The translations under genes were made by a program, and so were the position numbers. This document shows, in pieces, positions 1-30,536 of a stretch of 64,000 nt of DNA (position 1 is the stretch's first letter; every line of letters starts with the position of its first letter). The stretch covers positions 1-64,000 of the IMG/VR virus record IMGVR_UViG_3300015370_000568; one strand, 5' to 3'. The stretch comes from a virus. The notes under the pieces were generated by a model. That model did not search any database. It was not told the DNA's origin and saw nothing but the letters and a program-made list of their open reading frames with translations.

Positions 1-47
1 AAAAAAGGTTTCCACCTTTCTCTCAATCCAGACTACAGAGATTCTGA
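1..47 (+). CDS. 3' end of a fifth DUF1566-family paralog (partial)
   Basis: Frame 3 reads KRFPPFSQSRLQRF*, matching the PFSQxxLRRF* tail of the four downstream paralogs, with the same AAAGGT..ACCTTT hairpin. Confidence 0.8.
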   Translation, partial: KRFPPFSQSRLQRF

Positions 48-58
48 AAGGCAGGATT

Positions 59-289
59 TTGGAACAGGAACGATTAAATCAAGTAGGTTTTCTTCTTGAG
101 GCTATTTATCATCTAGTACAACTATATTGTGCAAAAAGCAGCAAGCAGGCAACCTATCACTATACTTGGGCAGACTATTCTGTTACTAAGACTCTAAGCT
201 CTCTTTCTCCTAAAGTTGCTGATAATATGGGAAAACAACTTGATCAGCTTAGGAAAGAAGCTGTCAAGAGAGGACTAATAGAGGAGTAG
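59..289 (+). CDS. hypothetical protein
   Basis: ORF fills the gap between neighbours; GAAAGG upstream. Confidence 0.55.
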   Translation: MEQERLNQVGFLLEAIYHLVQLYCAKSSKQATYHYTWADYSVTKTLSSLSPKVADNMGKQLDQLRKEAVKRGLIEE

Positions 290-291
290 CA

Positions 292-873
292 TTGAATACT
301 GTCACTATTGTTGGAGTCGGAGCACTTGGTTCTCATGTAGCTCTTTTTGCTCGTAACTGGAAGAACTATAGGCTCCGACTTATAGATCATGACAAAATTG
401 AGTCAAAGAATATTATGGCCCAGGTTCATACAAAAATGGGGCTTGGCAACAATAAGGCTTTGGCTCTCCAGCAAGTAATCAAACAGCTCTTTGGCGTCCC
501 TATAGAGGCTTTCCCTAGAAAGCTAATTCCTGACAATGTAGAAATACTTCTAGGTCGCTCTTCTCTAGTTATTGACTGTACAGATAATATTGAGGCCCGT
601 AAACTAATTCAAAAGTTCACACAGGCCCATAATATTCCCTGTCTACATAGTGCTCTATCAGCTAGTGGCGATTTTGCCAGGATTGTCTGGACTGAACACT
701 TTGTTCCGGACCCAGAAGGAACTCCTGGGCAAGCTACTTGTGAAGATGGAGAAATGCTACCATTTTTTGCAGCTGTAGCAGCTCAAACAACTATTGTCGC
801 TCAAGAGTTTCTCTCAACTAGTCGAAGAACAAGTTATCAAATGACTCCCCAGTTCCTACTAAGAGTCGTCTAA
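292..873 (+). CDS. ThiF/E1-like adenylyltransferase
   Basis: IVGVGALGS nucleotide-binding loop, LIDHDKIESKN, VIDCTDN, candidate catalytic Cys in ATCED. Confidence 0.85.
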   Translation: MNTVTIVGVGALGSHVALFARNWKNYRLRLIDHDKIESKNIMAQVHTKMGLGNNKALALQQVIKQLFGVPIEAFPRKLIPDNVEILLGRSSLVIDCTDNIEARKLIQKFTQAHNIPCLHSALSASGDFARIVWTEHFVPDPEGTPGQATCEDGEMLPFFAAVAAQTTIVAQEFLSTSRRTSYQMTPQFLLRVV

Positions 874-1326
874 ATGTCTCGCTATCTAAAAATTAGTAGT
901 GAGATTATCTTCGATCCTTGTACAAACCTCCAATGGGCAAAGGATTATGTAGACAATAAGACCTGGACTCAAGCACAAGAATATTGCGATGAACTAAATG
1001 CCCAAAGATATGCAGGTTTTGATGACTGGCGATTGCCTACAATAGGAGAATTATGGACACTGATCGACCATTCTAGATTTAATCCAGCAAGCTTATTTCC
1101 TGATATGCCTTCAAAAAATTTCTGGTCGTCGTCGTCCTGCGCCTACAACACCGACTACGCGTGGAACGTCTGCTTCGACGTCGGCTTCGTGTACAACGGC
1201 TACAAGTCGTACGTTTACGCGGCGCGGTGCGCGCGGGGCGGACCTTTGGTCCTTGACTCTAAAAAGAAAGAGGGCAAGAAAGAAAGGTTACTACCTTTCT
1301 CTCAATTTAGGCTGAGAAGATTCTAA
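874..1326 (+). CDS. DUF1566 (Lcl C-terminal, CLec-fold) protein, DGR target 1
   Basis: D..TNLQW, TWTQAQEYC..LN, DWRLPTIGEL, FWSSS, AWxVxF motifs; variable repeat near the C-terminus. Confidence 0.9.
   Translation: MSRYLKISSEIIFDPCTNLQWAKDYVDNKTWTQAQEYCDELNAQRYAGFDDWRLPTIGELWTLIDHSRFNPASLFPDMPSKNFWSSSSCAYNTDYAWNVCFDVGFVYNGYKSYVYAARCARGGPLVLDSKKKEGKKERLLPFSQFRLRRF
1120..1260 (+). repeat. DGR variable repeat VR1 with IMH-like GC run
   Basis: 141-nt GC-rich repeat in four copies; differences fall mainly at positions 1-2 of NNC codons. Confidence 0.88.
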
Positions 1327-1781
1327 TGTCTCGCTTTCAAATCATTAACAATGAAATTGTACTAGATAAAGAAACAGGTCTTCAATGGACCAAGAACTAT
1401 GTAATAGAAAAGACTTGGGACCAAGCACAAGAATACTGCAACGAACTAAACGCCCAAAGATACGGAGGTTTTAGTGATTGGCGAGTACCGACAATTGCAG
1501 AACTAATAACCTTGATTGACTTTGAAAGAAGGGGCCCAGCTAGTTCTTTTCCTGATATGCCTTCAAAAACTTTCTGGTCGTCGTCGTCCTACGCCAACAT
1601 CACCGCCAACGCGTGGTACGTCTCCTTCGCCCACGGCAACGTGAACAACGCCCACAAGACGAACGTCTTCGCGGCGCGGTGCGCGCGGGGCGGACCTTTG
1701 GTTCTTGGCTCTCAAGATAAAAAGAAGAGAAAGAAGGAAGTTCCTTTATCTTTCTCTCAGCTTAGACTGAGAAGGTTCTAA
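1326..1781 (+). CDS. DUF1566 protein, DGR target 2
   Basis: Paralog of 874..1326 with WRVPT..EL and FWSSS motifs and a VR. Confidence 0.9.
   Translation: MSRFQIINNEIVLDKETGLQWTKNYVIEKTWDQAQEYCNELNAQRYGGFSDWRVPTIAELITLIDFERRGPASSFPDMPSKTFWSSSSYANITANAWYVSFAHGNVNNAHKTNVFAARCARGGPLVLGSQDKKKRKKEVPLSFSQLRLRRF
1572..1712 (+). repeat. DGR variable repeat VR2
   Basis: Aligns without gaps to VR1, VR3 and VR4. Confidence 0.88.
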
Positions 1782-1794
1782 AAAGGAGAATCTG

Positions 1795-2634
1795 ATGGTT
1801 TCCAAAGTCCACCTTCTAATTATCGACCCTCAAATAGATTTTACAGAACCTGGCAGACCTCTTTATGTCCCCGGTGCTGATAATGATATGAGACAAATCG
1901 TGAAATTACTGAACTTCCTGATAGAAAGGAATGGACCTACTAGTATCACTGTTTCATTGGATAGTCATTCTCCCTTCACTGTTAGTCATCCTTGTATGTT
2001 TATTAATAGTGAAGGTCAACATCCAGAACCCTTTATCCAAATTCATCTAGAAGATGTCTTCAGTGGAACATGGCAAGTTATTAACATTGATTGGTACACA
2101 ATAGTTGTACAATACCTCAAGTTTCTACAAGAACAGGGAAAGAGCCTAACTATTTGGCCTCCACACTGTATTGTAGGTTCTTCAGGACATGCCATTTGTC
2201 CTGTAGTAAATGAAGCAATTATTAAGTGGGAAATGGAGTTTAACTGGTCAGCAGTACGTCTTCTTAAAGGATTGTCACAGGATAGCGACCAATTCTCTAT
2301 TTTTCATCCTGTTTTTGCTTCTCTAGCAGATAGAAAAGAGGCAATTGATCTAGCATCTAAGTTTGCAGAAAGCGATCTCCTACTTGTTTGCGGTGAAGCA
2401 GCAAGTCACTGTGTAATAGAGTCTCTTGAAAGCTATTACAGTATCTGCGAAAGGTATCAATTGAGAGAGCTAGGAACTCATAGACAAGTTATTCTTCTAA
2501 CTGATGCAACTTCTAGTGTACCAGGCTATGAAGAAGAGACCCAGAAAAGGCTGGATAAGCTTCAAGAGAAGGGACTTCTTTTCTCAACTGTTAAGGAAAT
2601 TCTCAATAATATTAATCCTTTGCTAAAGGAATAA
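1795..2634 (+). CDS. pncA: nicotinamidase (isochorismatase family)
   Basis: LLIIDPQIDF, SLDSH, WPPHC, GEAASHCV motifs; adjacent to pncB. Confidence 0.85.
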   Translation: MVSKVHLLIIDPQIDFTEPGRPLYVPGADNDMRQIVKLLNFLIERNGPTSITVSLDSHSPFTVSHPCMFINSEGQHPEPFIQIHLEDVFSGTWQVINIDWYTIVVQYLKFLQEQGKSLTIWPPHCIVGSSGHAICPVVNEAIIKWEMEFNWSAVRLLKGLSQDSDQFSIFHPVFASLADRKEAIDLASKFAESDLLLVCGEAASHCVIESLESYYSICERYQLRELGTHRQVILLTDATSSVPGYEEETQKRLDKLQEKGLLFSTVKEILNNINPLLKE

Positions 2635-2637
2635 AAA

Positions 2638-3918
2638 TTGACTGCTTTACTAACTGACCTTTATCAGATTAGCATGATGCAAGGCTACTATCTAGCCGGT
2701 AAGCATCAGAATCTAGCAACTTTTGAGCTAACATTTAGAAAGGGCTATGGTAATCAAGCTTGGCTAATTTTTGCTGGGCTTGAATCAGTCCTACAATTCA
2801 TCAAAAAGCTGCGGTTTACTGAGGAGGATATCAGGTATCTTAGTAATATGGGCTTTGACTCTTCTTTTCTTAGAGCTCTTGAAGATTTCAAGTTTACTGG
2901 CGATATTTTTTCTCTTCCAGAAGGCACAGTTTTCTTCCCTAGAGAGCCAGCTCTAATTGTTCAAGCTCCTTTATGGGAAGCCCAGTATCTTGAAACAATG
3001 ATTGTTAACTTTATTGGCTTTCAAACCCTAGTAGCTACCAAGGCAAAACATTATAGATTCGCCGCTAGGGATAAACAACTGATCGAAATGGGACTACGTA
3101 GAGGTCATGGGTTTAACACAGAAATGTCCCGAGCTGCACGAATTGGAGGCTTTGACTATACTTCTAATGTTGAAGCTGGAAGACTCTATAGTATTCCAAC
3201 AGTAGGAACAATGGCCCATAGTTGGGTAATGTCTTTTCAGGAAGAAACTGAAGCTTTCATTTCTTTTGCAAATCATGGCAGACCACCAATTTCTCTACTT
3301 CTTGATACCTACAGTACCCTTGATAGCGGTCTCCCTCATGCTCTGAAAGTTATTACAAACAGAGAAGGAATTAGTAGTATCCGTCTTGATTCAGGTAATC
3401 TTCTTGAACTAAGTAAAACAGTTAGAGAAGAGCTTGATTATCTAGGAGATGAAGGACAACACGTTAAGATTATTGTTTCCGGCGACCTTACTCCTGATAG
3501 CATAGCTACTCTTGAAGCTCAAAATGCTCCAATTGATATGTATGGAGTCGGCTCAGCTCTAGCAACACTCCATCCTTTCCCTATTCATACTGCTGTCTAT
3601 AAGCTTTGTCAGATTATAGATAGTAGGACAGGACAAATTCGCAAGATTTGTAAAAAGTCCGATTCACCTGCTAAAACTACTCTTCCAGGTCGAAAAACTT
3701 TAGTTCGAGACTATGACACTAAGAAAGACACTATTGTTCCAGTTCTACCAACATACAATCATACTTCCCCTCAAGACCCTTTTATTGTGGCAATCAAACA
3801 AGGACAGACTACTCAATTCCTTCCAACAATGACTGAGAAAGCTAGACAAAGACTTCAAGATACTAACGAATTAGTTTTTAGTCCAGATTGGAAGGTAGAG
3901 ATTGATTCAAGTATCTAA
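2638..3918 (+). CDS. pncB: nicotinate phosphoribosyltransferase
   Basis: ALLTDLYQISM, EMGLRR, GTMAHSW, LLDTY, IRLDSG, SGDL, YGVG, VYKL motifs. Confidence 0.92.
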   Translation: MTALLTDLYQISMMQGYYLAGKHQNLATFELTFRKGYGNQAWLIFAGLESVLQFIKKLRFTEEDIRYLSNMGFDSSFLRALEDFKFTGDIFSLPEGTVFFPREPALIVQAPLWEAQYLETMIVNFIGFQTLVATKAKHYRFAARDKQLIEMGLRRGHGFNTEMSRAARIGGFDYTSNVEAGRLYSIPTVGTMAHSWVMSFQEETEAFISFANHGRPPISLLLDTYSTLDSGLPHALKVITNREGISSIRLDSGNLLELSKTVREELDYLGDEGQHVKIIVSGDLTPDSIATLEAQNAPIDMYGVGSALATLHPFPIHTAVYKLCQIIDSRTGQIRKICKKSDSPAKTTLPGRKTLVRDYDTKKDTIVPVLPTYNHTSPQDPFIVAIKQGQTTQFLPTMTEKARQRLQDTNELVFSPDWKVEIDSSI

Positions 3919-4093
3919 AGTGCAGAACTGGATTAGTAACAATGTTCCTCAGCTTCTAGGAGCTCTGGTTATTGTTATTGACTTGCTCGCAGCTATACTT
4001 TATCCAGTCTCTGAACTTCTTGCCTTAATTGCCTATCTTTTGTATAGAATTAAGGAAAGAAAACGACCCCTACTAATAGTGCCAGGAGTCTAA
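3902..4093 (+). CDS. small membrane protein
   Basis: Long hydrophobic stretch; ORF fits the gene order. Confidence 0.5.
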   Translation: MIQVSKVQNWISNNVPQLLGALVIVIDLLAAILYPVSELLALIAYLLYRIKERKRPLLIVPGV

Positions 4094-4094
4094 A

Positions 4095-4565
4095 GTGGAA
4101 TCAGATAGATTCCCCAGTTGGACAATCAATGGAGATCTAGTTATTCTAGATCGAAGAACTAGCCTTGAATGGACCGGATGCTTTGGCTCTAACCTAAACT
4201 GGGACCAAGCGCAAGAATACTGTGATACACTAAATTCACAAGCATATGCTGGACCTAACGACTGGCGATTGCCTACAATAGAAGAATTATGGACACTAAT
4301 TGATTTTCAGAGAGCTAACCCAGCAAGTTCATTTCCTGATATGCCTCCCAAAACTTTTTGGTCGTCGTCGTCTTACGCCTACAACACCGGCTACGCGTGG
4401 CTCGTCTACTTCGCCTACGGCCACGTGAACCACGACTACAAGACGTACGGATACGCGGCGCGGTGCGTACGGGGCGGACCTTCGGTTCTTGACTCTTCCA
4501 AGAAGAAAGAGGGCAAAAAAGAAAAGGTTCCACCTTTCTCTCAAATGCCTTTGAGAAGGTTCTAA
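4095..4565 (+). CDS. DUF1566 protein, DGR target 3
   Basis: DWRLPTIEEL, FWSSS, VR and PFSQMPLRRF tail. Confidence 0.9.
   Translation: MESDRFPSWTINGDLVILDRRTSLEWTGCFGSNLNWDQAQEYCDTLNSQAYAGPNDWRLPTIEELWTLIDFQRANPASSFPDMPPKTFWSSSSYAYNTGYAWLVYFAYGHVNHDYKTYGYAARCVRGGPSVLDSSKKKEGKKEKVPPFSQMPLRRF
4356..4496 (+). repeat. DGR variable repeat VR3
   Basis: Ungapped alignment to the other VRs. Confidence 0.88.
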
Positions 4566-5023
4566 TGCATCGCTTTCAAATCATTAGTAATGAAATTATT
4601 CTAGATGAAGAAACTAATCTTCAGTGGGCAATGAACTATGTAGAAAAAAAGACATGGGACCAAGCGCATGAATATTGTGATGAACTAAATGCCCAAAAAT
4701 ACGGAGGCTTTGATGATTGGCGACTGCCTACAATTGAAGAACTTAGAATGCTAGTTGATTATTCTAGATTTGACCCAGCAAGCTTGTTTCCTGATATGCC
4801 TCCCAAAACTTTCTGGTCGTCGTCGTCCTTCGCCTACAACACCGCCAACGCGTGGCTCGTCCTCTTCGACTACGGCAACGTGTACTACGACTACAAGACG
4901 AACGTTGGCGCGGCGCGGTGCGCGCGGAGCGGACCTTTGACTCTTAACTCTTCTAAGAAAAAGAGCAAGAAGAAAAAGGAAGTTCCCTTACCTTTTTTCC
5001 AATTACCTCTAAGAAGGTTCTAA
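4565..5023 (+). CDS. DUF1566 protein, DGR target 4
   Basis: Same motifs as targets 1-3. Confidence 0.9.
   Translation: MHRFQIISNEIILDEETNLQWAMNYVEKKTWDQAHEYCDELNAQKYGGFDDWRLPTIEELRMLVDYSRFDPASLFPDMPPKTFWSSSSFAYNTANAWLVLFDYGNVYYDYKTNVGAARCARSGPLTLNSSKKKSKKKKEVPLPFFQLPLRRF
4811..4951 (+). repeat. DGR variable repeat VR4
   Basis: Ungapped alignment to the other VRs. Confidence 0.88.
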
Positions 5024-5025
5024 AA

Positions 5026-5241
5026 ATGATGAAATTTCCCGACACTTACCATAATGTTAGTTACACCTGTCCTTGGTGTGGCGCACCTGGAAAACATTTG
5101 ACAAAAGGTGCGCCGACAGGTGTAAGAATCAGAGCAACCTGTTTTTGCAAAATCTGTAAAAAACTCGTTGGAGTTACTTTCGAGTTTAATCCGGACTTTG
5201 TGGCTGTCCTTGATACCTATCAAGCATCAGTCGCACCTTAA
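5026..5241 (+). CDS. small zinc-ribbon protein
   Basis: CPWC ... CKIC. Confidence 0.55.
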   Translation: MMKFPDTYHNVSYTCPWCGAPGKHLTKGAPTGVRIRATCFCKICKKLVGVTFEFNPDFVAVLDTYQASVAP

Positions 5242-5280
5242 TTAGGGAAATTCGGGAAATTTTTTGTAGGGAGATTCACT

Positions 5281-6450
5281 GTGGAGCTACAAGAAAGACT
5301 AGCCGCAGCACAATTGATTGCTAACCAGCCACAGCTCATAGGAGCAGCCTTAGCTGGACCTCTTCAAGGAGCAAAGATTAGAGTCTTTCACAGCCAAAAT
5401 TATTATACAGCCTGGTGGAAAGACTCAGGATTGTTTCTCCGAGTCCCCTTCGCTAATTGCCAAGACCCCCTTTGGTGTGAGTCTGGCCCTGAAATCATTG
5501 ATTGGGCCATAACAGAGAAGTGTAACAAATCATGTCGGATTTGTTATTCTAATGCGACACCTGAAGGAAGAGAGACAACAGAAGCCGAGTTAGAGGCTTT
5601 TTGTAAGGCTCTCAAGACTGTACCTGTTCATTCAGTAGCTCTTGGCGGCGGCAATCCTAATGAACATCCTCTATTTCCTACAATTGTTCGCCGGCTACAT
5701 GAAACAGGAGCTATACCTACATATACAACTAATGGAGAAGGAGTAACAGATGAAGTTCTAGAAGCTACTAAGCAACATTGTGGAGCTGTAGCTGTTAGCT
5801 GGCCATGGGATGGAGATACTAATGACCTAGTCTTAGTTCTCTCAACTCTCCGAAAGTTTATTAGGGCCGGCATCCAAACAAATATCCACTTTGTTCTTGG
5901 AAAAGATAGTATTTCAGAGGCTATCAGAATAACTAGATACTCGCCTAAGTACTGGAATCTTGATGGTCTAAATGCTATTGTCTTCCTCCTCTATAAGCCT
6001 GTAGGAAGAGCAACAGAGGATGGTCTTCTTGACGCTTCTAATCCGAAACTGCTAGAACTCTTTTCTCTTCTTGGTTTAGTTCAGGGAAAACAAAAGCCTA
6101 CAGGCTGGCCAGTGGGATTTGATAGCTGTTCTGTACCTATTCTTCTATCTCTTACAGATACAAATAGAGAACTGGTCGAGACATGTGAAAGTGCTCGCTT
6201 TTCCATGTTTCTTACCACTGATTTAAGAGCAGCTCCATGTTCATTTATGCAACATCAAGGAGAGTTGCCATCTATCCTTTCCAGTTCAATTCTAGATGTC
6301 TGGCAGCATAATGAACTATTTACCACCCACCGAGACCTACTGCTCCACCATCATCCAGTAAAGTGTATGGGTTGCAGTGACTTAAAGCACTGTCTTGGAG
6401 GCTGTACTTACCTTCCTCAAATTGTAGACTGCCAAAGAAGTGATGTATAA
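5281..6450 (+). CDS. radical SAM/SPASM-domain protein
   Basis: CNKSCRIC, ALGGGNPNEHP, TTNG, and C-terminal SPASM cysteines (CESAR, PCSF, CMGC...CLGGC). Confidence 0.9.
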   Translation: MELQERLAAAQLIANQPQLIGAALAGPLQGAKIRVFHSQNYYTAWWKDSGLFLRVPFANCQDPLWCESGPEIIDWAITEKCNKSCRICYSNATPEGRETTEAELEAFCKALKTVPVHSVALGGGNPNEHPLFPTIVRRLHETGAIPTYTTNGEGVTDEVLEATKQHCGAVAVSWPWDGDTNDLVLVLSTLRKFIRAGIQTNIHFVLGKDSISEAIRITRYSPKYWNLDGLNAIVFLLYKPVGRATEDGLLDASNPKLLELFSLLGLVQGKQKPTGWPVGFDSCSVPILLSLTDTNRELVETCESARFSMFLTTDLRAAPCSFMQHQGELPSILSSSILDVWQHNELFTTHRDLLLHHHPVKCMGCSDLKHCLGGCTYLPQIVDCQRSDV

Positions 6451-21994: not shown

Positions 21995-22082
21995 TCAAGG
22001 GTGACCGAGTGGCCGATGGTAACGGGCTGTTAACCCGTCGACTAACCCTCCACCGCAGGTTCAAATCCTGCCCCTTGAGCCA
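21995..22082 (+). tRNA. tRNA-Asn(GTT) with long variable region
   Basis: TCAAGGG/CCCTTGA acceptor, ACGGG-CTGTTAA-CCCGT anticodon arm, TTCAAAT loop, CCA. Confidence 0.85.
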
Positions 22083-22085
22083 TAA

Positions 22086-22160
22086 CCCTCGTTCGTCTAG
22101 CGGTTAGGACTCCACCCTTCCAAGGTGGAAGCGTCGGTTCGACTCCGACACGAGGGTCCA
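22086..22160 (+). tRNA. tRNA-Gly(TCC)
   Basis: Cloverleaf, CCACC-CTTCCAA-GGTGG, U73, CCA. Confidence 0.92.
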
Positions 22161-22213
22161 CTATCTTTCCTCTTAAATAGTCGCAACTTCCTCTTTTTTG
22201 AAAGGCGAATGAC

Positions 22214-23146
22214 ATGACATGGCAAGAGCTTCTTGACCAAGTAACTCTGGATGCTGCTGATTGTCGAGATGTTCGAAAGGCTTTGAGCCTTTGCGAATAC
22301 AAAGCTACTGAAGATACTGGGGACAATATGTTGGAGAATGCCCGAATGACTCCTTGGGCATTCGGACAGATGTGTCAGCGACTAGGTATTCCTACTTCCT
22401 ATATGAATATTTGTCCTTCTCAGCTGAGAGAAACCAATATTCTCTATTGGCTAACTCGGTCACCAAGAGATGTAATGATTCGCTTTCGAGAAGATACAGT
22501 CAGAGCATTAGTATCTGACAAGTACGGCCCGCTTGATGACCATAAAATGGTTAAGCTAACAATGGATAAAGCTGACGACCAACTAGATATTGTCAGAGCC
22601 AGCTGTAGTGATTCTTTTACTGAGCTAGTAACTCTTGACAAGCTAGGGCCTCTAGGAGTTAGAGACCTACAAGACCATGAGTTTCGTATTGGTCTAATTC
22701 TTCATAACAGTATGGTTGGCCGGGCTGCTTTTCGAGCTAGACTTGCAGTTCTGAGACAAAGACAGTCTTGCTGGTGGATATATCTTTCATCTGGTAGTGT
22801 TAGTGTATCCAAGCGGCACATCTATATTGATGAGGACCAGTTTCTTCTTAAACTAGAAGCTGTCCTAGCTCAATTGAATACATTCCGAGTAGCAGCAGAA
22901 CAAGCTCTTGAGTCAGCCCTTATTGATAAGGTTAAGCCAGTTGAGCTAGCAAGGTTGAAGCATAAGATGGCTCTCATCTTTGGAGCTGTGTGGGTAAAAG
23001 AAAGATGGCCCGGCTTTGAGCAGGATTCCTCTCTTACTAAGTATACTCTAGCAAGTATTATTGCTGAAGAAGCTAATAGAGATGGAATTTCTCCTGAAGA
23101 TCATGTATATGGCTCACTCATTGCTGGAAGACTAGTAGGAGTATAA
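22214..23146 (+). CDS. DUF932-like phage protein
   Basis: AFGQMCQRLGIP, VRALVSDKY, LHNSMVG motifs. Confidence 0.7.
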   Translation: MTWQELLDQVTLDAADCRDVRKALSLCEYKATEDTGDNMLENARMTPWAFGQMCQRLGIPTSYMNICPSQLRETNILYWLTRSPRDVMIRFREDTVRALVSDKYGPLDDHKMVKLTMDKADDQLDIVRASCSDSFTELVTLDKLGPLGVRDLQDHEFRIGLILHNSMVGRAAFRARLAVLRQRQSCWWIYLSSGSVSVSKRHIYIDEDQFLLKLEAVLAQLNTFRVAAEQALESALIDKVKPVELARLKHKMALIFGAVWVKERWPGFEQDSSLTKYTLASIIAEEANRDGISPEDHVYGSLIAGRLVGV

Positions 23147-23153
23147 CTGTCCT

Positions 23154-24377
23154 ATGGCTCAAGTAGCTCATCTGGTAATGTGTACCTCCGCCAACAACAA
23201 TAAATACTACAACATGGAAGAAAAAGGTGGCGAGATTCATGTAGAATATGGCCGAGTAGGAGTTACTTCTGTCTCTTGTGTCTATCCATTAAGTAAATGG
23301 AACTCGCTCTATAACTCTAAGATTAAGAAGGGCTATAGAGATATCACTGCTATGAAAGCAGTACAGACAAGTAATCCTTCAGGATTTCTTGATATCTCGG
23401 ACAGAGCTATTGCTACTCTTATTGCTGACCTTCAAGCCTTTGCTAAAAAATCAGTGTCTCAAAACTACACTGTTTCATCAGAAGCAGTAACTGCTCAACA
23501 AGTTGCAGAGGCACAGAGAATTCTAGATAGCATTGCTCAACAACTTTCTCCATCAGCAGATGGTAGAGCTATTGATGCTATGCTTCTCAATCTCTACCAC
23601 GTAATTCCAAGAAAAATGGATCACGTCCATAATTTCTTGATTCGTGGTACTAATTTAACAGATACCAAGCTCTATAAGAGAGCTCAAGAGTTAGTAAGTA
23701 ATGAGCAAGCTACTCTTGATGTCATGAGCGGCCAGGTTTCTTTACATACAGCCCAACAGACTCAACAAGCTACTCCTGATGACCCCATTACTATTCTTGA
23801 TGCTATTGGTATCTCTCTAACAATAACAGCTCAAGAAGATATAGATATCATCAAAACTCAGCTCGGAGGAATGCAAAATCAGTACCAAACGTCCTATAAA
23901 GTAACAAACAAAAAGACAGAAGAAAGATTTCAAAAATGGTTACAGTCAACAAAGAATAAGACGACCAAGCTCTTCTGGCATGGTAGTCGTAATGAGAACT
24001 GGTGGAATATCCTAGGCTCTGGATTAATGATTCGTCCTTCTGGAGTAGTACATACTGGAAGTATGCTCGGAAATGCCATTTATGGAGCTGACCGAGCTAA
24101 GAAATCTCTAGGCTATACATCAATCAATGGCTCTTATTGGGCTAGAGGTAGTGCTAGACGAGCATTTATGGGTCTCTTCCTCTTTCATCTTGGCAAACAA
24201 TTAAAGCTAACTAATTTCCCTTCTGATGCTCATCGCTTTTCTTCCAAGTATTTAGCTAGTAAGGGAGGTTATGATAGTGTATTTGCCTCAGCAGAAAAAG
24301 GAATGCTTCGTAACAATGAATTTACTGTCTATAGACCTGACCAGGTAACTATCAGATATCTGGTAGAAATTAAGTAA
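23154..24377 (+). CDS. PARP-like ADP-ribosyltransferase (WGR + regulatory + catalytic domains)
   Basis: NNNKYY..YGRVG (WGR), LYHVIPR, LFWHGSR, GNAIYGAD..KSLGY, NNEF (H-Y-E triad). Confidence 0.88.
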   Translation: MAQVAHLVMCTSANNNKYYNMEEKGGEIHVEYGRVGVTSVSCVYPLSKWNSLYNSKIKKGYRDITAMKAVQTSNPSGFLDISDRAIATLIADLQAFAKKSVSQNYTVSSEAVTAQQVAEAQRILDSIAQQLSPSADGRAIDAMLLNLYHVIPRKMDHVHNFLIRGTNLTDTKLYKRAQELVSNEQATLDVMSGQVSLHTAQQTQQATPDDPITILDAIGISLTITAQEDIDIIKTQLGGMQNQYQTSYKVTNKKTEERFQKWLQSTKNKTTKLFWHGSRNENWWNILGSGLMIRPSGVVHTGSMLGNAIYGADRAKKSLGYTSINGSYWARGSARRAFMGLFLFHLGKQLKLTNFPSDAHRFSSKYLASKGGYDSVFASAEKGMLRNNEFTVYRPDQVTIRYLVEIK

Positions 24378-24379
24378 GC

Positions 24380-24467
24380 AGAGAGATGCCTGAGAGGTTA
24401 AAAGGGCCGCCCTGCTAAGGCGTGCGAGGTAACACTCACGTCAGTTCGAATCTGACTCTCTCTGCCA
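24380..24467 (+). tRNA. tRNA-Ser(GCT)
   Basis: AGAGAGA/TCTCTCT acceptor, CTGCTAA loop, long variable arm, CCA. Confidence 0.85.
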
Positions 24468-24506
24468 ACTTATAACTTTTTCTAAGCCTGATGAAAGGGA
24501 AAAGCA

Positions 24507-24755
24507 ATGACCATTTTCAAGTTTTCACTTCCTGTTCATGGCCTTAATACAGTTCTAATGCCCAAGTGGGCAGACATTGTGCATTGTGATTTTTCAGGTG
24601 ACGACCCAGCCATTTGGGTCTATTGTAATCAGGAAGCTTTGAAAGAAGAGCGACAGTTTCTTGTTCTAGGCACTGGGAAGCCTATTCCTAAGAAGGCCAT
24701 CTACCTGGGCACAGCAGTTAAACCAGGGGTTGGTGTTCATGTCTTTGAAGTATAA
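24507..24755 (+). CDS. small conserved phage protein
   Basis: TIFKF..., GTG.PIP, YLGT, VHVFE pattern. Confidence 0.65.
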   Translation: MTIFKFSLPVHGLNTVLMPKWADIVHCDFSGDDPAIWVYCNQEALKEERQFLVLGTGKPIPKKAIYLGTAVKPGVGVHVFEV

Positions 24756-24765
24756 GATATCTAGA

Positions 24766-24843
24766 GACCTCGTCGTCTAGTCTGGCTCAGGATCCTGGCC
24801 TTTCACGCCAGAGACGCGGATTCAAATTCCGCCGAGGTCGCCA
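24766..24843 (+). tRNA. tRNA-Glu(TTC)
   Basis: CTGGC-CTTTCAC-GCCAG; CCA. Confidence 0.92.
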
Positions 24844-24857
24844 TACATATACTACTT

Positions 24858-24945
24858 GCCGGTGTGGAGGAATCAGGCATACTCCTCCCACTTAAAATGG
24901 GAGGCCCTTAGTGGATTGAGGGTTCAAATCCCTCCACCGGCACCA
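24858..24945 (+). tRNA. tRNA-Leu(TAA)
   Basis: TCCCA-CTTAAAA-TGGGA; variable arm; CCA. Confidence 0.92.
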
Positions 24946-24956
24946 AAAGAAAAAGA

Positions 24957-25157
24957 ATGTCCAGACGTGAGTATATAACTACTGAGCCACCTCTTAACCC
25001 ACCAGAAATCTGTGAAGAATGTGGCAAAGCAGAAGCCTTCAGGTGGATAAGAGATGGTAACTGGCAGCCTTACTATCTTTGTCATCATTGCTATCTAGAA
25101 TTTGATACAGTAAGAGGTGAATTTCTGTTTGAAATTGAAAAAGAAAGGAACAGATAA
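24957..25157 (+). CDS. small Zn-finger protein
   Basis: CEEC ... CHHC. Confidence 0.55.
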   Translation: MSRREYITTEPPLNPPEICEECGKAEAFRWIRDGNWQPYYLCHHCYLEFDTVRGEFLFEIEKERNR

Positions 25158-25159
25158 TA

Positions 25160-25405
25160 ATGACCTCAGGACAAATGATGGTCTGGGCAGCAGTCCTAGC
25201 TAAAGAACTAGATATCTCTAATCCCCCAAGACATGTCCTTGAAGACGAAACACAATGGAGTAAATGGGAAGACAATCGTCTTATTACTGCTATTGAACAA
25301 GCAAATCATGTAGTAAAATGGCTTGAAACAATAGGACCTCAAGTAAAAGAAGCAATGGGCGGAGAGACTGACTCTTATATCACTCTCATGGAAATGATTC
25401 AGTAG
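25160..25405 (+). CDS. hypothetical protein
   Basis: ORF between tRNAs, GAAAGG upstream. Confidence 0.55.
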   Translation: MTSGQMMVWAAVLAKELDISNPPRHVLEDETQWSKWEDNRLITAIEQANHVVKWLETIGPQVKEAMGGETDSYITLMEMIQ

Positions 25406-25406
25406 T

Positions 25407-25492
25407 GGTCCTGTAGGAGAATTGGTATATCCAAGAGGCTTAGACCCTCTGGCCTAACAGCCGTCCTGGTTCGAATCCGGGCAGGACCACCA
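25407..25492 (+). tRNA. tRNA-Leu(TAG)
   Basis: AGAGG-CTTAGAC-CCTCT; variable arm; CCA. Confidence 0.92.
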
Positions 25493-25555
25493 CACACACA
25501 CACAATCTTAGTTGCAGAAAGTACCACTTAATGGTACCTTTAGTGAATGAAACCT

Positions 25556-25631
25556 CGGAGAATGGGCAAGTTGGTATGCCACCTGTTTTGGGGACAGGAA
25601 ATCGGGAGTTCAAGTCTCCCTTCTCCGACCA
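25556..25631 (+). tRNA. tRNA-Pro(TGG)
   Basis: CCTGT-TTTGGGG-ACAGG; CGGAGAA/TTCTCCG acceptor; CCA. Confidence 0.9.
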
Positions 25632-25638
25632 TTCTTGG

Positions 25639-25712
25639 TGCGGTATGGTGAAACAGCATCACACTAGGCTCATAACCTTGAGTTTCCAGTGCAACTCTGG
25701 ATACCGCTACCA
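25639..25712 (+). tRNA. tRNA-Met(CAT), possibly initiator-like (1:72 mismatch)
   Basis: CTCATAA loop; GCGGTA/TACCGC acceptor; CCA. Confidence 0.8.
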
Positions 25713-25714
25713 CT

Positions 25715-25951
25715 ATGACTATTAAGCGTTTCTCCTCTAAAAAGCTTCAGAAAGAATTCAAAGTCATTGGGGCTTGTGCTGACTTGCTAAGTTCTCTGAA
25801 AAATGAAGATGCACAGGCACGAGCAGCAGGTTACTTACTTCATCTCTTCGGAAAAGAAGAGATAGAGGAAGAAGATAAGCAAAAAGTAAAGATAGAAGCA
25901 ATTGGCTTTACGTTACCAGAAAACGATGAAGATGAAGATGAAGGCGCGTAG
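25715..25951 (+). CDS. acidic-tailed hypothetical protein
   Basis: ORF whose stop codon lies inside tRNA-Val. Confidence 0.6.
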   Translation: MTIKRFSSKKLQKEFKVIGACADLLSSLKNEDAQARAAGYLLHLFGKEEIEEEDKQKVKIEAIGFTLPENDEDEDEGA

Positions 25952-26017
25952 TTCAGTTGGGAGAACGCTGCCCTTACAAGGCAGAAGTCGCAGGTCCAAA
26001 TCCTGTCGCGCCTACCA
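25942..26017 (+). tRNA. tRNA-Val(TAC)
   Basis: CTGCC-CTTACAA-GGCAG; CCA. Confidence 0.92.
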
Positions 26018-26027
26018 CCTTTCTTGT

Positions 26028-26122
26028 GGGAAGATAACGTCCGCAGGCTGTAAACCTGCCCTGCTTTAACAACTGGCGTACGGTCTAGCAGCAAGGAGGT
26101 TCAAATCCTTCTCTTCCCACCA
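26028..26122 (+). tRNA. atypical tRNA-Tyr(GTA), D-armless with a very long variable arm
   Basis: GGGAAGA/TCTTCCC acceptor, GCAGG-CTGTAAA-CCTGC anticodon arm, T arm, A73, CCA; only 8 nt between acceptor and anticodon stems. Confidence 0.75.
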
Positions 26123-26132
26123 TCTAAATTAT

Positions 26133-26207
26133 GCGGCAGAAGCTCAAGTGGCTGAGCATCTGACTGTGGATCAGAAGGCTGTGAGTTCAAATCTCACCTG
26201 CCGTTCA
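26133..26207 (+). tRNA. tRNA-His(GTG), atypical 3' end
   Basis: TCTGA-CTGTGGA-TCAGA; T arm; no clean encoded CCA. Confidence 0.75.
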
Positions 26208-26268
26208 CTTGACTAAATAGTCTGAATTGACTAGTAAGTCAAACTAGGCTATTTAATCAACTATATGT

Positions 26269-26343
26269 GGAGCTATAACATAGAAGTCTATGTGCTTGAC
26301 TGAAAATCAAGAGATCCTGGAGCGTTACCAGGTGGCTCCACCA
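26269..26343 (+). tRNA. tRNA-Phe(GAA)
   Basis: CTTGA-CTGAAAA-TCAAG; atypical T loop; CCA. Confidence 0.85.
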
Positions 26344-26346
26344 TTA

Positions 26347-26435
26347 GGAAGGTTGGCCGAGCGGTTTAAGGCGGTAGTCTTGAAAACTACAGAGGTTAAT
26401 AGCCTCCAGAGGTTCGAATCCTCTACCTTCCTCCA
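26347..26435 (+). tRNA. tRNA-Ser(TGA)
   Basis: GTAGT-CTTGAAA-ACTAC; variable arm; CCA. Confidence 0.93.
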
Positions 26436-26457
26436 CAAACTATAGGAGAAAAATTAG

Positions 26458-26694
26458 ATGGTTAGATGTCCTCAATGTAATAGTGAAGTCTACTATGTTC
26501 AAGATGTAACTGAGTATCATTCTTTCGACTTGCTAGATAATGATGATGACTTTGTAGACCTAATAGCACTAGTTGACAGTGTTCCTAATAACGATAAAGG
26601 CTATCGTCTTCACTGTAGTCAATGTCCTAATCAACCAACTATGACTGAGCTAAGGCAATATTATGAAAATAAGACTGACTCATGTAACGAATAG
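26458..26694 (+). CDS. small Zn-ribbon protein
   Basis: CPQC ... CSQC; AGGAG RBS. Confidence 0.6.
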   Translation: MVRCPQCNSEVYYVQDVTEYHSFDLLDNDDDFVDLIALVDSVPNNDKGYRLHCSQCPNQPTMTELRQYYENKTDSCNE

Positions 26695-26968
26695 TTCTTC
26701 CTCTTCTTTTGTAGTTTCGCGAGCAGCGATTACTGGGAAGCAACTACAGCTCATTCATAACCATATTCTCATGGCCGAAGAATTGGGGCTTCATAAGAGC
26801 CCTCCATGGCAAATTATTGAAGATGGCCATGTCATAATTGGGACAACCTCTATGGATAACTTTGATATGCATTTCTTCTTGAAACACATTGGGGTTCCTC
26901 TTAATAGAGTCTTCTGGGCTAGAGCCATTCTGAGAAGGGATAGGGATGAATGTCTTTCTTTAGAGTAA
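26663..26968 (+). CDS. MKIRLxHVTNSSSSSF-tag protein 1
   Basis: N-terminal motif shared by six ORFs. Confidence 0.8.
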   Translation: MKIRLTHVTNSSSSSFVVSRAAITGKQLQLIHNHILMAEELGLHKSPPWQIIEDGHVIIGTTSMDNFDMHFFLKHIGVPLNRVFWARAILRRDRDECLSLE

Positions 26969-28026
26969 CAGTAGAAACAGTAGAGAAGGTCTGGCCGCAT
27001 TCAAATGCTGATAGATTAGAGCTAGCCTCTCTTCAGAACATGAGCTTCCAATTCTGTGTACAAAAAGGGTTATGGAAGTCTGGGGATAAGTGTCTCTATT
27101 TCCCAGTTGATTCTCTCCTCCCCGATAAGACAGCTGAGCTACTAGGAGTAAAAGGATTACTCGCTGGGAAAGAAAAGAATAGAATCAAGACAATTAGACT
27201 ACGAGGAGAATACAGCCAAGGTATCATTGGCCCTTGTGACCTAGTCCCTGAGGCTATTGATTATGAACAGCTTACTGAATACTTTGGGGTAGTTAAGTAT
27301 GAACCACCAGTAACAGAAGAGAAGAGTGCCAGGCTTTTCCCTTTACCAGCTTTTGTTCCTACCTATGATATTGAAGGAGCAGATAGATATAAGCTGGCGG
27401 CTGATGAAATGATGGATTTGCCCATAGCTATTACTGAAAAGCTTGAAGGTATGTGTTCCTCTATCAGCTGGAATCCCGCGACAGCAAAGATTCATCTATG
27501 TTCTCATCGAAAAGATGTAGTACCTAAAGAAGATGGCAGTTCCCATTTCTTTTGGACCACAGCTACAAGAATAGGGCTCTTTGATAAGCTAAGAAAGCTA
27601 GTAGAGTTACTACAAAAAGATGGGCTAGCGTTTCAAGATTCAACTGTCTCTATCTTTGGCGAGTTTTGTGGGCCAAGAGCTCAGGGGAATATTTATGGAC
27701 TACCCAAACATGACATCTACTGTTTTGATATCCGAATAGGAGAACAGTGGCTCGACTTCCCTCTTTGGAAAGACTATTGCCTCAAGGTAGGTCTTACTAC
27801 CGTTCCTATCCTTTGGGATGGACGAGGAACATTGAGAGAAGTTCTAGAAGCCTCCAAGGTTGATAGTATTCCAAAGCTATCAGATGGAGAGTCAGTATTA
27901 AGAAAGAATACAAGGCGGGAAGGAATTGTTATCCGGCCAGTTATTGAACAAAGGTCTGAAATTCTTCATGGCCGGCTTCAATTAAAACAACGATCTCCAG
28001 CCTACTTAGCAAAGTCGGAGAACTAA
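26950..28026 (+). CDS. RNA ligase, DRB0094/Rnl5-like
   Basis: HSNADRLELA, LRGEYSQG, TEKLEG, FGEFCG, YCFDI, REGIVIR motifs. Confidence 0.88.
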   Translation: MSFFRVTVETVEKVWPHSNADRLELASLQNMSFQFCVQKGLWKSGDKCLYFPVDSLLPDKTAELLGVKGLLAGKEKNRIKTIRLRGEYSQGIIGPCDLVPEAIDYEQLTEYFGVVKYEPPVTEEKSARLFPLPAFVPTYDIEGADRYKLAADEMMDLPIAITEKLEGMCSSISWNPATAKIHLCSHRKDVVPKEDGSSHFFWTTATRIGLFDKLRKLVELLQKDGLAFQDSTVSIFGEFCGPRAQGNIYGLPKHDIYCFDIRIGEQWLDFPLWKDYCLKVGLTTVPILWDGRGTLREVLEASKVDSIPKLSDGESVLRKNTRREGIVIRPVIEQRSEILHGRLQLKQRSPAYLAKSEN

Positions 28027-28028
28027 AA

Positions 28029-28469
28029 TTGATTCTTGCTATGACTGCTGGTCTCCCTAGTGCTGGGAAGACCACATTTTGTAGACAACAATTACTTACT
28101 AACTACGTCTATATCAGTCCTGAGTTCCTTGCTCCTCAACAAACAGAGCTGCTGATTCGGACATGTATACAGGCAAACCAACAGCTAATAATTGATGCCC
28201 CTAATCTAAGCAGGGATGACCGAGCAAAGTGGCAAAAGTATAAACCTCATGACTGGAAAAGTTACTGCTTCTACTTCCCTCCTAACATAGACGAATGTCT
28301 TGAAAGGAATAGACAACGGGAAAAAGGTAAATTGCCTGCTCATGTAATCTCTAATGCAGCTATGTTCTGGCGTGAGCCAGAATTAGAAGAAGGTTTTCAC
28401 TCGATTTTCAAAGTCACAGTCCTAGCAGAGAAAAACTTTTCAGTACTATGGGAGAAAAGAGATGCCTAA
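28029..28469 (+). CDS. P-loop polynucleotide kinase-like protein (AAA_33)
   Basis: GLPSAGKTT, IIDAPN, CLERNRQR, PELEEGF; coupled to the RNA ligase. Confidence 0.78.
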   Translation: MILAMTAGLPSAGKTTFCRQQLLTNYVYISPEFLAPQQTELLIRTCIQANQQLIIDAPNLSRDDRAKWQKYKPHDWKSYCFYFPPNIDECLERNRQREKGKLPAHVISNAAMFWREPELEEGFHSIFKVTVLAEKNFSVLWEKRDA

Positions 28470-29175: not shown

Positions 29176-29656
29176 CTCATCTTCTAGTAGCTTTCTAGTA
29201 GCTTTTCCTGAAGAGCAGCCAGATACTCCTGAGAAGATGCAAAAGCTTCTGTTTGGAGAACAAGAACTACTTTACCAGACATTTGAAGATGAACCCTGGC
29301 CTACAGAGGAACTAGCTAGAGCAGTATTAGAAAGCCGGCAAACAGTTAAGACTATACCTCTTGAAGTAGAAGCTGTTGTAGCAATGCTAGTTACAGGCTA
29401 TGGCTCATGGAATCATCTTGCAGAAGACCTTACTCAAGGAATGAGTCTAGACGAAAAGTGCAAAAGTTGGCAGGCAATCACAGATTTTGAAGCAGACAAA
29501 GTAGCAAGAGCTTTTATTGAACAAGTCTTACGAAGATTTCCTAAGACTAAAGAGCTTGAAGTCTACGAGTTTGCTGATGAAACTCCTTTAGGTAGTGCAT
29601 TAGAATACAGTAGTGTCTTCAGTACTCTTCCTCATATAACAATTAGTCATCACTAG
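29147..29656 (+). CDS. MKIRLxHVTNSSSSSF-tag protein 2
   Basis: Shared N-terminal motif. Confidence 0.8.
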   Translation: MKIRLAHVTNSSSSSFLVAFPEEQPDTPEKMQKLLFGEQELLYQTFEDEPWPTEELARAVLESRQTVKTIPLEVEAVVAMLVTGYGSWNHLAEDLTQGMSLDEKCKSWQAITDFEADKVARAFIEQVLRRFPKTKELEVYEFADETPLGSALEYSSVFSTLPHITISHH

Positions 29657-29664
29657 GAGCATCA

Positions 29665-30471: not shown

Positions 30472-30536
30472 CTCAAGGGTGGCAGCTCTGGTCTTATAAA
30501 CCAGGGGAGGTAGTTCGAGTCTACCCAGGGTCACCA
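30462..30536 (+). tRNA. tRNA-Ile(TAT)
   Basis: CTGGT-CTTATAA-ACCAG; CCA. Confidence 0.88.

Follow-up and report, generated by a model that had tools for sequence, protein, structure and literature searches.

Small lectin-fold proteins arrayed among metabolic genes of a large phage are probable targets of a diversity-generating retroelement

Introduction

Why would a phage keep a row of small lectin-fold genes that agree almost base for base in one short block, differ there at scattered codons, and lie among genes of metabolism? To our knowledge, diversity-generating retroelements (DGRs) of phages are understood almost wholly as tail-fibre tools for switching receptors. We analysed such a row in a 64,000-nucleotide stretch of viral DNA, hereafter the window, which opens an IMG/VR record of 131,084 bp. 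The record's completeness is 65%, and its first bases already fall within the array; CheckV estimates the full phage genome at ~200 kb, and the genome's GC content is 42%. A tail sheath, virion proteins, a replication module and 19 tRNAs mark the record as phage, and its source is a large, lytic-looking groundwater phage.

We conclude, with a probability of about 80%, that the row belongs to an array encoding six or more small Lcl_C/DUF1566 proteins of C-type-lectin fold, which lack a leader and whose ligand-binding surface is the target of a DGR.

An array of three tandem pairs

Four paralogs lie complete in the window (Table 1), where repeat analysis recovers them as direct-repeat families. 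The array extends past the start of the record on metagenome contig L005, whose positions 725–1473 match window positions 1–749 at 749/749 bases and which carries two further paralogs. The earlier note on this DNA had counted four; those between 874 and 5,023 are real, and with the two on L005 the count rises to six or more, arranged as three tandem pairs interspersed with metabolic genes. All six are present on a contig of 151,112 bp. As that note had stated, the targets are multiple, stand alone without an N-terminal stalk or hydrophobic leader, and adjoin a ThiF-like protein and a nicotinate phosphoribosyltransferase of NAD salvage. Other neighbours are radical-SAM and replication genes. 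An earlier assignment of the 279-aa ORF to PncA found no backing in Pfam or PHROG.

Table 1. Features of the array and its neighbourhood (window coordinates unless a contig is named).
Feature	Position	Strand	Remarks
Paralog −1	L005 2–322		ORF on L005
Paralog 0, last 47 nt	1–47	+	Gene runs upstream off the record; whole at L005 322–771; repeat D4
76-aa ORF, no assigned function	59–289	+	Between paralog 0 and ThiF-like gene; no PHROG match
ThiF-family (E1-like adenylyltransferase) protein, 193 aa	292–873	+	PF00899, E = 4.4e-23
Paralog p1, Lcl_C/DUF1566 C-type-lectin-fold protein, 150 aa	874–1326	+	PF07603, E = 5.3e-29
VR1	1123–1230	+	Mutable codons 1138–1218; invariant GC run from 1219; IMH-like extension to ~1248
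p1 C-terminal extension, coding part	1249–1326	+	Lys-rich linker and PFSQ..LRRF; predicted disordered; weak AT-rich inverted repeat
Equivalent extensions of p2, p3, p4	1701–1781, 4485–4565, 4940–5023	+
Paralog p2, 151 aa	1326–1781	+	Start overlaps p1 stop (TAATG); PF07603, E = 9.4e-32
VR2	1575–1682	+	Codon alignment
279-aa ORF	1795–2634	+	No Pfam or PHROG match
Nicotinate phosphoribosyltransferase-family protein, 426 aa	2638–3918	+	PF17767, E = 1.1e-31; PF04095; phrog_448
Paralog p3, 156 aa	4095–4565	+	PF07603, E = 6.3e-34; AlphaFold2 model, mean pLDDT 85.8
VR3	4359–4466	+	Codon alignment
Paralog p4, 152 aa	4565–5023	+	Start overlaps p3 stop; PF07603, E = 4.8e-32
VR4	4814–4921	+	Codon alignment

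Variation is confined to two positions of NNC codons

Each paralog contains a GC-rich block, the variable region (VR). The block had been described as a 141-nt repeat; the repetition is real, and its homogenised part spans ~108 nt, with an IMH-like extension to ~125 nt. The codon table of the four window copies bears out the earlier claim that sixteen NNC codons vary at positions 1 and 2 only: there are exactly 16, including aac/tac/ctc/ctc and ttc/aac/cac/aac. All other bases of the block are fixed across these copies, including the GCG TGG, GTC, TTC, GGC, GTG and AAG codons and the GC run that had been singled out before, and the flanks diverge chiefly at synonymous sites. The motifs flanking the variable codons, TGGTCGTCGTCGTC and GCGGCGCGGTGCG, are each found at these four places and nowhere else in the 64 kb, against 0.06 matches expected by chance.

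Adding the two upstream paralogs brings out the same asymmetry. Across six copies, positions 1, 2 and 3 vary in 14, 15 and 4 of 36 VR codons versus 12, 13 and 25 of 38 upstream codons (Fisher p = 3.9e-4). GC content is 0.635–0.659 in the VRs versus 0.33–0.42 across the remainder of each gene. The VR closes at its 3' end with an invariant GC-rich run, GCGGCGCGGTGCG, which corresponds to an IMH region and is identical in 6/6 copies; copy-specific differences start only beyond it. Five of the copies agree at 80/108 VR positions, only 7 of which are A; the ~28 positions that differ freely are codon positions 1 and 2 of the NNC codons. At three non-adenine positions where all other copies agree, paralog −1 has a different base, which may mean that recent homing passed this copy by.

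If the array works like characterised DGRs, a single template repeat (TR) common to all paralogs would be transcribed and then reverse-transcribed, bases would be misincorporated at random opposite template adenines, and the resulting cDNA would take the place of ~108 nt towards the 3' end of every paralog. Such overwriting from a shared template would leave identical, GC-rich non-adenine positions within an AT-rich gene and ~28 positions free. The template core proposed in the earlier note needs amending: at three codons read as AAC, GAC is likelier because position 1 is G in every copy.

Sites of variation fall largely on template adenines of related DGRs

Three canonical viral DGRs (L092, L093/L094 and L095) share the VR/TR core at the DNA level. 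Their own VR–TR mismatches fall on template A at 12/12, 15/16 and 14/14 positions, respectively. When the array is set against the same templates, its variable core positions fall on adenines at 14/16 (L092; p = 1.4e-7), 14/16 (L093/L094; p = 1.4e-7) and 12/16 (L095; p = 8.5e-6). The array's own TR is absent from the record, and we infer its adenine specificity from these homologous templates.

This coincidence bears on an explanation that dispenses with a retroelement altogether, in which gene conversion among paralogs combines with strong diversifying selection. Tandem paralogs could indeed convert one another. Yet conversion would not limit variation to positions 1 and 2 of NNC codons, erase nearly all synonymous change, produce a GC-rich island, or align variable sites with the template adenines of unrelated DGRs, and we regard this account as extremely unlikely.

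Comparison between assemblies shows VRs changing within unchanged surroundings. Paralog 0 occurs in two assemblies (proteins P0005 and P0007) that differ at 16/149 residues, all within residues 89–115. In VR1, sequencing run X2 differs from the window at 17 bases, 17/17 of them on the 28 variable positions, with 0 differences in the flanking contig pieces. Five other VR-spanning contig pieces, from three runs, have 0 differences from the window (VR2 and VR3 in X2, VR3 and VR4 in X3, VR1 in X4). Because so many VRs are unchanged between runs, turnover is not rapid. Taken together, the adenine coincidence and the confinement of between-assembly differences to the block indicate that the repeats are DGR variable regions that were recently diversified.

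The same data could be read as relics of a lost DGR, with a frozen pattern and with old strain polymorphisms behind the differences between assemblies. The identity of several VRs across runs from different studies and years would fit such a history, as would the drift of paralog −1 at non-adenine sites and the failure to find an RT or TR in the record. Against it stand the two loci that differ in the VR only, and the agreement of five copies within a block whose flanks are only ~77% identical in the same copies, which requires recent overwriting from a common source. A relic is therefore quite improbable.

Where the retroelement machinery may be encoded

The earlier note had pointed to a template with an adjacent reverse transcriptase (RT) and Avd, and none of the three was found in the 131,084-bp record. 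RT profiles PF00078 and phrog_1423 gave 0 matches there (positive controls matched in 3/14 genomes), the Avd family phrog_3206 gave none, and neither a fifth VR/TR-like copy nor a further IMH-like run was present. A degenerate VR/TR pattern run against JGI metagenome contigs returned a single match, which was a VR on L005 and no template; a template on a separate contig could have come to light in this search, as L005, from the same phage, did. In IMG/VR, a pattern anchored on both flanking motifs matched nothing and found no template.

One reading of these searches is that the phage carries targets only and is served in trans by an RT, Avd and template encoded elsewhere, whether on the host chromosome, in a prophage or by a co-infecting element. 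The missing genes speak for it, as do the GC-rich VR islands within a 42% GC genome, and experiments cited by Wu et al. 2018 (PMC5758913) describe avd-TR-brt working in trans from a plasmid. However, the record is incomplete and begins inside the array, which extends further upstream; GC-richness is uninformative, as any template imposes its own composition on VRs wherever it is encoded. No matching template turned up in 185,579 GTDB species genomes, where the VR/TR pattern had 0 matches and the 23-nt GC run had 7; 0/6 readable upstream sequences of these were VR-like or AAC-rich, and the seventh match lay at a locus start. Wu et al. 2018 further argue that a phage DGR should not have remote targets, since these would not be co-inherited with it. 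Of 22 viral records that have both an RT and Lcl_C relatives, 20 show no more than 10 kb between RT and target (median 5.5 kb). Supply in trans is thus rather unlikely. We think it probable that RT, Avd and TR are encoded by the phage itself in the missing third of its genome, most simply upstream of the array.

The DNA downstream of the VRs was also compared with known DGR hairpins. Guo et al. 2011 (PMC3240598) describe a GC-rich stem of 7–10 bp with a 4-nt GRNA loop, 4–34 bp from the VR; this feature, known from a set of phage DGRs, enhances homing without being a universal defining trait. This canonical hairpin/cruciform was not found downstream of the array VRs. An inverted repeat ~45–50 nt 3' of the VR is AT-rich with loops of 3–5 nt that are not GRNA, and its statistics are modest (shuffle z-scores −1.2 to −3.2, consensus energy −3.98 kcal/mol, 1/11 pairs compensatory).

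A lectin fold with a variable surface and a conserved tail

Pfam family PF07603 (Lcl_C) matches 4/4 window paralogs with E-values of 5e-29 to 6e-34 and scores of 101–117 bits, against a gathering cut-off of 34.9. In the AlphaFold2 model of p3, the lectin fold begins at about residue 8. The VR occupies residues ~84–119 in a protein of 150, and a 30-aa tail follows it. The top Foldseek matches in the PDB are the Lcl C-terminal domain (8q4e) and C-type lectins (probability 1.00, E only 2e-3); 8q4e has 22% identity and a TM-score of 0.47–0.55 to the model and is matched by profile search at 1.7e-6. The earlier reading of the repeats as DGR-type VRs on a C-type-lectin fold is thus supported by the Pfam, model and Foldseek matches and by the adenine coincidence described above.

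The proteins are probably soluble dimers, as judged from models. The predicted p3–p4 complex has an ipSAE of 0.74, against 0.01 for the best of three controls; the mark used is attained by 58/80 solved complexes and 2/110 mismatched pairs, counts that are only rough here because the p3–p4 alignments were self-made. Contacts agreed between runs at 93% or more, with a partner pLDDT of at least 82. The predicted interface is symmetric and takes in VR residues, and in the model homodimer and heterodimer are indistinguishable. The pass may also reflect mere likeness, since close cousins of true partners pass too and a solved Lcl domain exists.

The C-terminal tail is Lys-rich with a conserved LRRF end, and is predicted to be disordered (pLDDT 52–56). 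It is missing from 26/26 non-phage homologs aligned, and among the record's 1078 stop-to-stop ORFs of at least 40 aa, only the four paralogs match the tail motif by regular expression. Longer homologs are multi-domain, adhesin-like proteins; no long fused form on the phage's contig appeared among the 120 of 211 matches listed.

Possible sites of action

Phage virion proteins also lack a leader and need no signal peptide. We give virion-attached or released adhesins slightly less than an even chance. One specific form, in which the proteins are displayed on the virion or released at lysis, are attached by the conserved tail, and serve host or substrate recognition through the DGR, is a serious though tentative contender. 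The tail, unique to these proteins, could act as a docking peptide, and the adhesin-like homologs fit. Viral DGR targets are described as mostly tail proteins by Roux et al. 2021 (PMC8144416), and the Lcl_C family, wherever its role is known, is both extracellular and adhesive, with a Legionella surface lipoprotein and Ig-like and fimbrial fusions as examples (Wu et al. 2018, PMC5758913). Genome position argues the other way: the array shares the + strand with genes of replication and metabolism, whereas the sheath and virion genes identified are on the − strand at ~84–131 kb. The proteins have no N-terminal anchoring domain, the lectin fold beginning almost at the first residue, and the targets of a relative (L071) adjoin an exonuclease gene, not tail genes.

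That the proteins are intracellular binders is possible, and some other site of action is unlikely. A fuller proposal, which we consider doubtful, is that the six or more paralogs supply the phage with a set of hypervariable binders that act in the cytoplasm, are produced alongside early and metabolic genes and are re-randomised by the DGR, so that variable host factors, defence proteins among them, could be neutralised or sensed. It would parallel the DGR-diversified putative antigen sensors described in bacteria (PNAS 2024, PMC10907252). In a bolder and speculative extension, the LRRF tail would serve the neighbouring ThiF-like E1 enzyme as a handle, or would act as a docking peptide, coupling each variable binder to a common effector or scaffold. 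The intracellular and counter-defence ideas both derive from gene position and the missing leader alone.

Relation to known systems

Knowledge of mechanism is left unchanged by this array. Multi-target cassettes like it are already present in IMG/VR. What it offers is a clear, recently active case in which the DGR targets are six small lectin-fold proteins, each standing alone and bearing a conserved tail that was not seen in other homologs; their genes form three tandem pairs placed among genes of metabolism and replication. The set is a defined one, with which to ask what is bound by phage DGR targets outside the tail. Iyer et al. 2021 detected no DGR-type lectin domains across 224 jumbo phages, and the array proteins have no match among 50,697 GenBank phage records; the array therefore extends the known occurrence of such arrays.

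The arrangement itself had been called unusual, a view that did not survive comparison: 286/497 pattern-matched IMG/VR stretches encode relatives (best protein identity to the array at most 50%), and many of the 80 loci kept hold 2–4 small Lcl_C ORFs. Wu et al. 2018 (NAR 46:11, PMC5758913) likewise report about half of DUF1566-class targets as short DUF1566-only proteins and 15% of DGRs as multi-target, with up to eight tandem targets. The cassettes L024, L071 and L092/L093/L095 share with the array a row of small stand-alone Lcl_C target genes, and their targets lie outside tail modules where checked. In both loci inspected, RT and Avd stand beside the targets; L024 runs from four small targets to Avd, RT and a methyltransferase. 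These cassettes differ in having Avd and RT directly downstream and the TR beside them, whereas the array's record has none of these and its targets form pairs spread among metabolic genes. L024 and the TR-bearing L092–L095 are also GC-rich, and several such records are proviruses or ~20–60 kb long.

Among characterised classes, the DUF1566/CLec2 targets, which Wu et al. 2018 place in category 'd' and of which the Legionella LdtA DGR is an example, carry the VR on the same Pfam domain and have a VR core of the same type, AW.V.F..G.V. LdtA, however, is a lipoprotein with a signal, unlike the leaderless array proteins; the VR ends the protein in this class and is followed by the conserved ~30-aa tail in the array; and the array resides in a large lytic-looking phage, its RT and TR not found in the record. 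The Legionella pneumophila Lcl C-terminal domain (8q4e), the best PDB match by structure and by sequence, belongs to a collagen-like adhesin that, unlike the array proteins, has no DGR diversification.

Mtd of Bordetella phage BPP-1 (Guo et al. 2011, PMC3240598; Roux et al. 2021, PMC8144416) is likewise a phage-borne C-type-lectin fold diversified near its C-terminus, and an invariant GC-rich run likewise ends its VR. DGRs of the Mtd type have a GC-rich 7–10 bp hairpin with a GRNA loop that was not seen at the array. Mtd, which has an N-terminal stalk, forms the tip of a tail fibre and is encoded in a structural module as a single target with its cassette adjacent, whereas the array proteins, stalkless and encoded outside the tail module, number at least six.

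A hypervariable array of six lectin-like proteins

The window holds a real, recently diversified target array of a diversity-generating retroelement (DGR), with a few distinctive traits. Its four genes, p1-p4, form direct-repeat families, and their products all match Lcl_C (PF07603, formerly DUF1566; Pfam, E 5e-29 to 6e-34). The genes lie as two translationally overlapping pairs, p1/p2 and p3/p4, embedded among metabolic genes. Neither Pfam (E <=0.01) nor PHROG (E <=0.001) gave a match for the 279-aa ORF, and its earlier label of PncA was not confirmed. A promoter and terminator scan gave counts equal to those of shuffled sequence.

Main features of the window
Feature	Position	Strand	Remarks
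ThiF-family protein	292-873		directly upstream of pair p1/p2
Lcl_C paralog p1	874-1326	+	150-156 aa (range of p1-p4)
Lcl_C paralog p2	1326-1781	+	
279-aa ORF	1795-2634		with NAPRTase, precedes pair p3/p4; no family match
NAPRTase	2638-3918		with 279-aa ORF, precedes pair p3/p4
Lcl_C paralog p3	4095-4565	+	
Lcl_C paralog p4	4565-5023	+	
tRNA genes (n=19, three clusters)	21995-32623		Rfam RF00005, 48.6-73.4 bits
Replicative polymerase	45246-47822		DnaE-like, phrog_405, E 2e-204

The array extends beyond the record. When JGI metagenome contigs were scanned with a degenerate pattern, a single contig matched, L005 (1,473 nt), whose last 749 nt are identical to window positions 1-749. Its upstream part encodes one whole paralog (paralog 0) and the 3' two-thirds of another (paralog -1), both with the same variable block. 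Moreover, a protein search found the four window proteins together with two more, P0006 and P0007, on a 151,112-bp contig of another assembly, with no seventh paralog among the 120 matches listed of 196 (1811 candidates). From the L005 overlap and the proteins of the larger contig it follows that the array comprises at least six members, arranged as three tandem pairs, and that the record begins in the tail of the second member. The earlier note's four paralogs thus stand for the window, whereas its total for the array does not. We also considered distinct paralog types for the first and second member of each pair; the identity matrix did not support them, with no clear classes and p3 simply an outlier.

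Variation confined to two codon positions

Each paralog gene carries a variable region (VR) bounded by TGGTCGTCGTCGTC and GCGGCGCGGTGCG. The window contains exactly four occurrences of each motif, where chance would give 0.06. Within it, 16 NNC codons vary at positions 1 and 2 only, while all other bases are the same in the four copies. Across six copies, codon positions 1/2/3 are variable in 14/15/4 of 36 block codons versus 12/13/25 of 38 upstream codons (Fisher p=3.9e-4). In five copies, 80 of 108 block positions are identical, just 7 of them A, while the upstream parts are on average 77% identical. GC content is 63.5-65.9% in the block versus 33-42% in the remainder of each gene. These codon-position counts, fixed positions and GC contrast confirm the repeat pattern that the earlier note had described, a signature opposite to the expectation from purifying selection or drift.

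The VR of paralog -1 (L005 115-222) departs from this pattern. Three non-adenine positions that are invariant in the other five copies are changed there (two G to A, one G to C), as though this copy had escaped recent rewriting; the template may have ceased to act on it.

Recent diversification

Two assemblies capture paralog 0 in different states. The proteins P0005 (L005 322-771) and P0007 (151-kb contig) derive from the same gene and differ at 16 of 149 residues, all within residues 89-115. The window is also present, at least partly, in 11 groundwater-metagenome runs from 7 studies, and we compared the contigs of four (X2-X5) with it; being assembled, these are blind to within-sample minor variants, X4 and X5 were compared only over the parts they cover, and the differences and contig pieces number at least those listed. 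In X2, VR1 shows 17 differences, every one of them at one of the 28 variable positions (hypergeometric p about 5e-17); the contig pieces flanking it show none. Other pieces are identical to the window: across VR2 and VR3 in X2, VR3 and VR4 in X3, and VR1 in X4. These unchanged pieces speak against rapid turnover.

Apparent differences at 4610-4731 were rejected as p4 variation, being contigs of paralog -1 aligned onto p4. Separately, contig ends at 1155, 4833, 4837, 4870 and 4882 (X3, X5) link VR stretches of 38-47 nt with unrelated AT-rich sequence, on one side or on both. Such joins could have arisen as assembly-graph artefacts at the repeats, or they could mark VR-like pieces located elsewhere; none of the joined pieces looks template-like.

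Probable adenine specificity and the predicted fold

A shorter core pattern used on IMG/VR led to three viral contigs with canonical DGRs whose template repeats (TRs) share the core. In these DGRs, VR-TR mismatches fall on template adenines in 12/12, 15/16 and 14/14 cases. The array's variable positions coincide with adenines of the three templates in 14/16, 14/16 and 12/16 cases (p=1.4e-7, 1.4e-7 and 8.5e-6), a measure of adenine specificity taken from homologous DGRs because the array's own template was not found.

The predicted structure fits a DGR target as well. An AlphaFold2 model (mean pLDDT 85.8) has as its best PDB matches the C-terminal domain of Legionella Lcl (8q4e) and C-type lectins (probability 1.00, E only 2e-3), and a sequence profile found 8q4e at 1.7e-6.

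The missing template and reverse transcriptase

The earlier note had proposed checking for a template, a reverse transcriptase (RT) and the accessory protein Avd. BLAST, profile, regex and pattern scans found none of them in the linear, 131,084-bp IMG/VR record, which is 65% complete (CheckV) and whose first 64 kb form the window. BLAST of VR1 against the record returned the four VRs and no fifth repeat; RT (PF00078, phrog_1423) and Avd (phrog_3206) profiles had no match; regex for VR pieces, AAC-rich windows and GC islands gave nothing TR-like; and no other run resembled the IMH, the GC-rich 3' end of the VR. Pattern scans found no template in IMG/VR, and in JGI metagenome contigs only L005, which is a VR. 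The VR pattern had no match in GTDB, where a second scan gave 7 GC-rich chance matches: six lack VR-like upstream sequence, and the seventh (L104) lies at the start of its locus, where the upstream side is not readable.

We favor a phage-encoded RT-TR cassette in the missing third of the genome, at a probability of roughly 0.65, since RT lies <=10 kb from an Lcl_C gene in 20 of 22 RT-positive viral relatives, the 126 kb downstream of the array lack an RT, and the upstream side lies beyond the record. Machinery acting in trans would also leave the record without an RT, and we consider it unlikely; that the VRs are a relic of a lost DGR is highly improbable. Head genes seem to be in the missing part too: a sheath gene lies at 124-126 kb on the - strand, and neither capsid nor terminase was found among 10 large ORFs tested.

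A large phage and its surroundings

The genome is that of a large phage, with a DnaE-type polymerase, RNR, a UvsX-like recombinase, ligases and 19 tRNAs. Searches with the paralog profile, ThiF and DNA polymerase found no close relatives in IMG/VR. Judging from the polymerase, whose best GenBank phage match is 33% identical, the phage appears to have no close cultured or deposited relative in these two databases. In 224 jumbo phages, Iyer et al. 2021 saw no lectin domains of this kind.

Two further loci stand out. A GC-rich island (31412-32011) between two tRNA clusters reaches 79% GC in 100-nt windows in a 42% GC phage. On both strands the ORFs that cross it resemble artefacts of composition. 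Tandem repeats, an Rfam match (best E 0.096) and VR homology are all absent, and the island is not rich in AAC; a large structured RNA or inserted foreign DNA could explain it. The second locus, 5026-6450, encodes a Cys-rich, zinc-ribbon-like ORF of 71 aa and, immediately downstream, a radical-SAM protein of 389 aa (PF04055, E 1.6e-10); the two may form a peptide-maturase pair.

A shared tail, a predicted dimer and the site of action

The paralogs share a conserved C-terminal extension of ~30 aa, predicted to be disordered, with a Lys-rich linker, PFSQ and LRRF. The 26 non-phage homologs aligned all lack this tail, and a regex scan of the record's 1078 ORFs matched only the four paralogs. Its Leu codons vary synonymously, so the peptide itself seems to be under selection. 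By eye, its last codons also look like a ribosome-binding site serving the gene that follows. A short ThiF/E1-like adenylyltransferase gene lies directly upstream of the paralogs and their LRRF-ending tails; that this enzyme acts on the paralog C-termini is pure speculation.

Complex modeling supports p3-p4 dimerization. With author-supplied alignments, the pair scored 0.74 versus 0.01 for the best control, above a mark that 58 of 80 solved complexes attain but just 2 of 110 mismatched pairs do; the runs agree in >=93% of contacts and partner pLDDT is >=82. Because the predicted interface is symmetric and includes VR residues, the model may equally describe a homodimer, or its score may stem from resemblance to lectin oligomers of solved structure.

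Where the proteins act divides the readings. Family precedent favors adhesins, attached to the virion or released, which we hold the leading option at slightly under even odds. Intracellular binders are possible but somewhat less probable. The six copies sit as pairs among metabolic genes, far from identified virion genes, a position that favors non-structural expression. Lack of a leader, in a phage protein, is no proof of a cytoplasmic location. Some other role is doubtful.

Comparison with known DGR arrays

The arrangement is less unusual than the earlier note held. With a profile built from 33 homologs, relatives turned up in 286 of 497 IMG/VR stretches selected by pattern; many of the 80 loci kept hold two to four small Lcl_C ORFs, and database homologs, too, are often 110-160 aa long and leaderless. 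Records of 50 of these 80 loci were searched for RT; 22 carry one, among them 8 of the 12 that are >=90% complete. Among the IMG/VR relatives, Avd, RT and a methyltransferase come after four small targets in L024, and in L071 the targets adjoin an exonuclease VIII gene. Wu et al. 2018 (PMC5758913) had described short DUF1566-only targets, internal VRs, cassettes with as many as eight targets, and phage targets that are not adjacent but lie within 50 kb.
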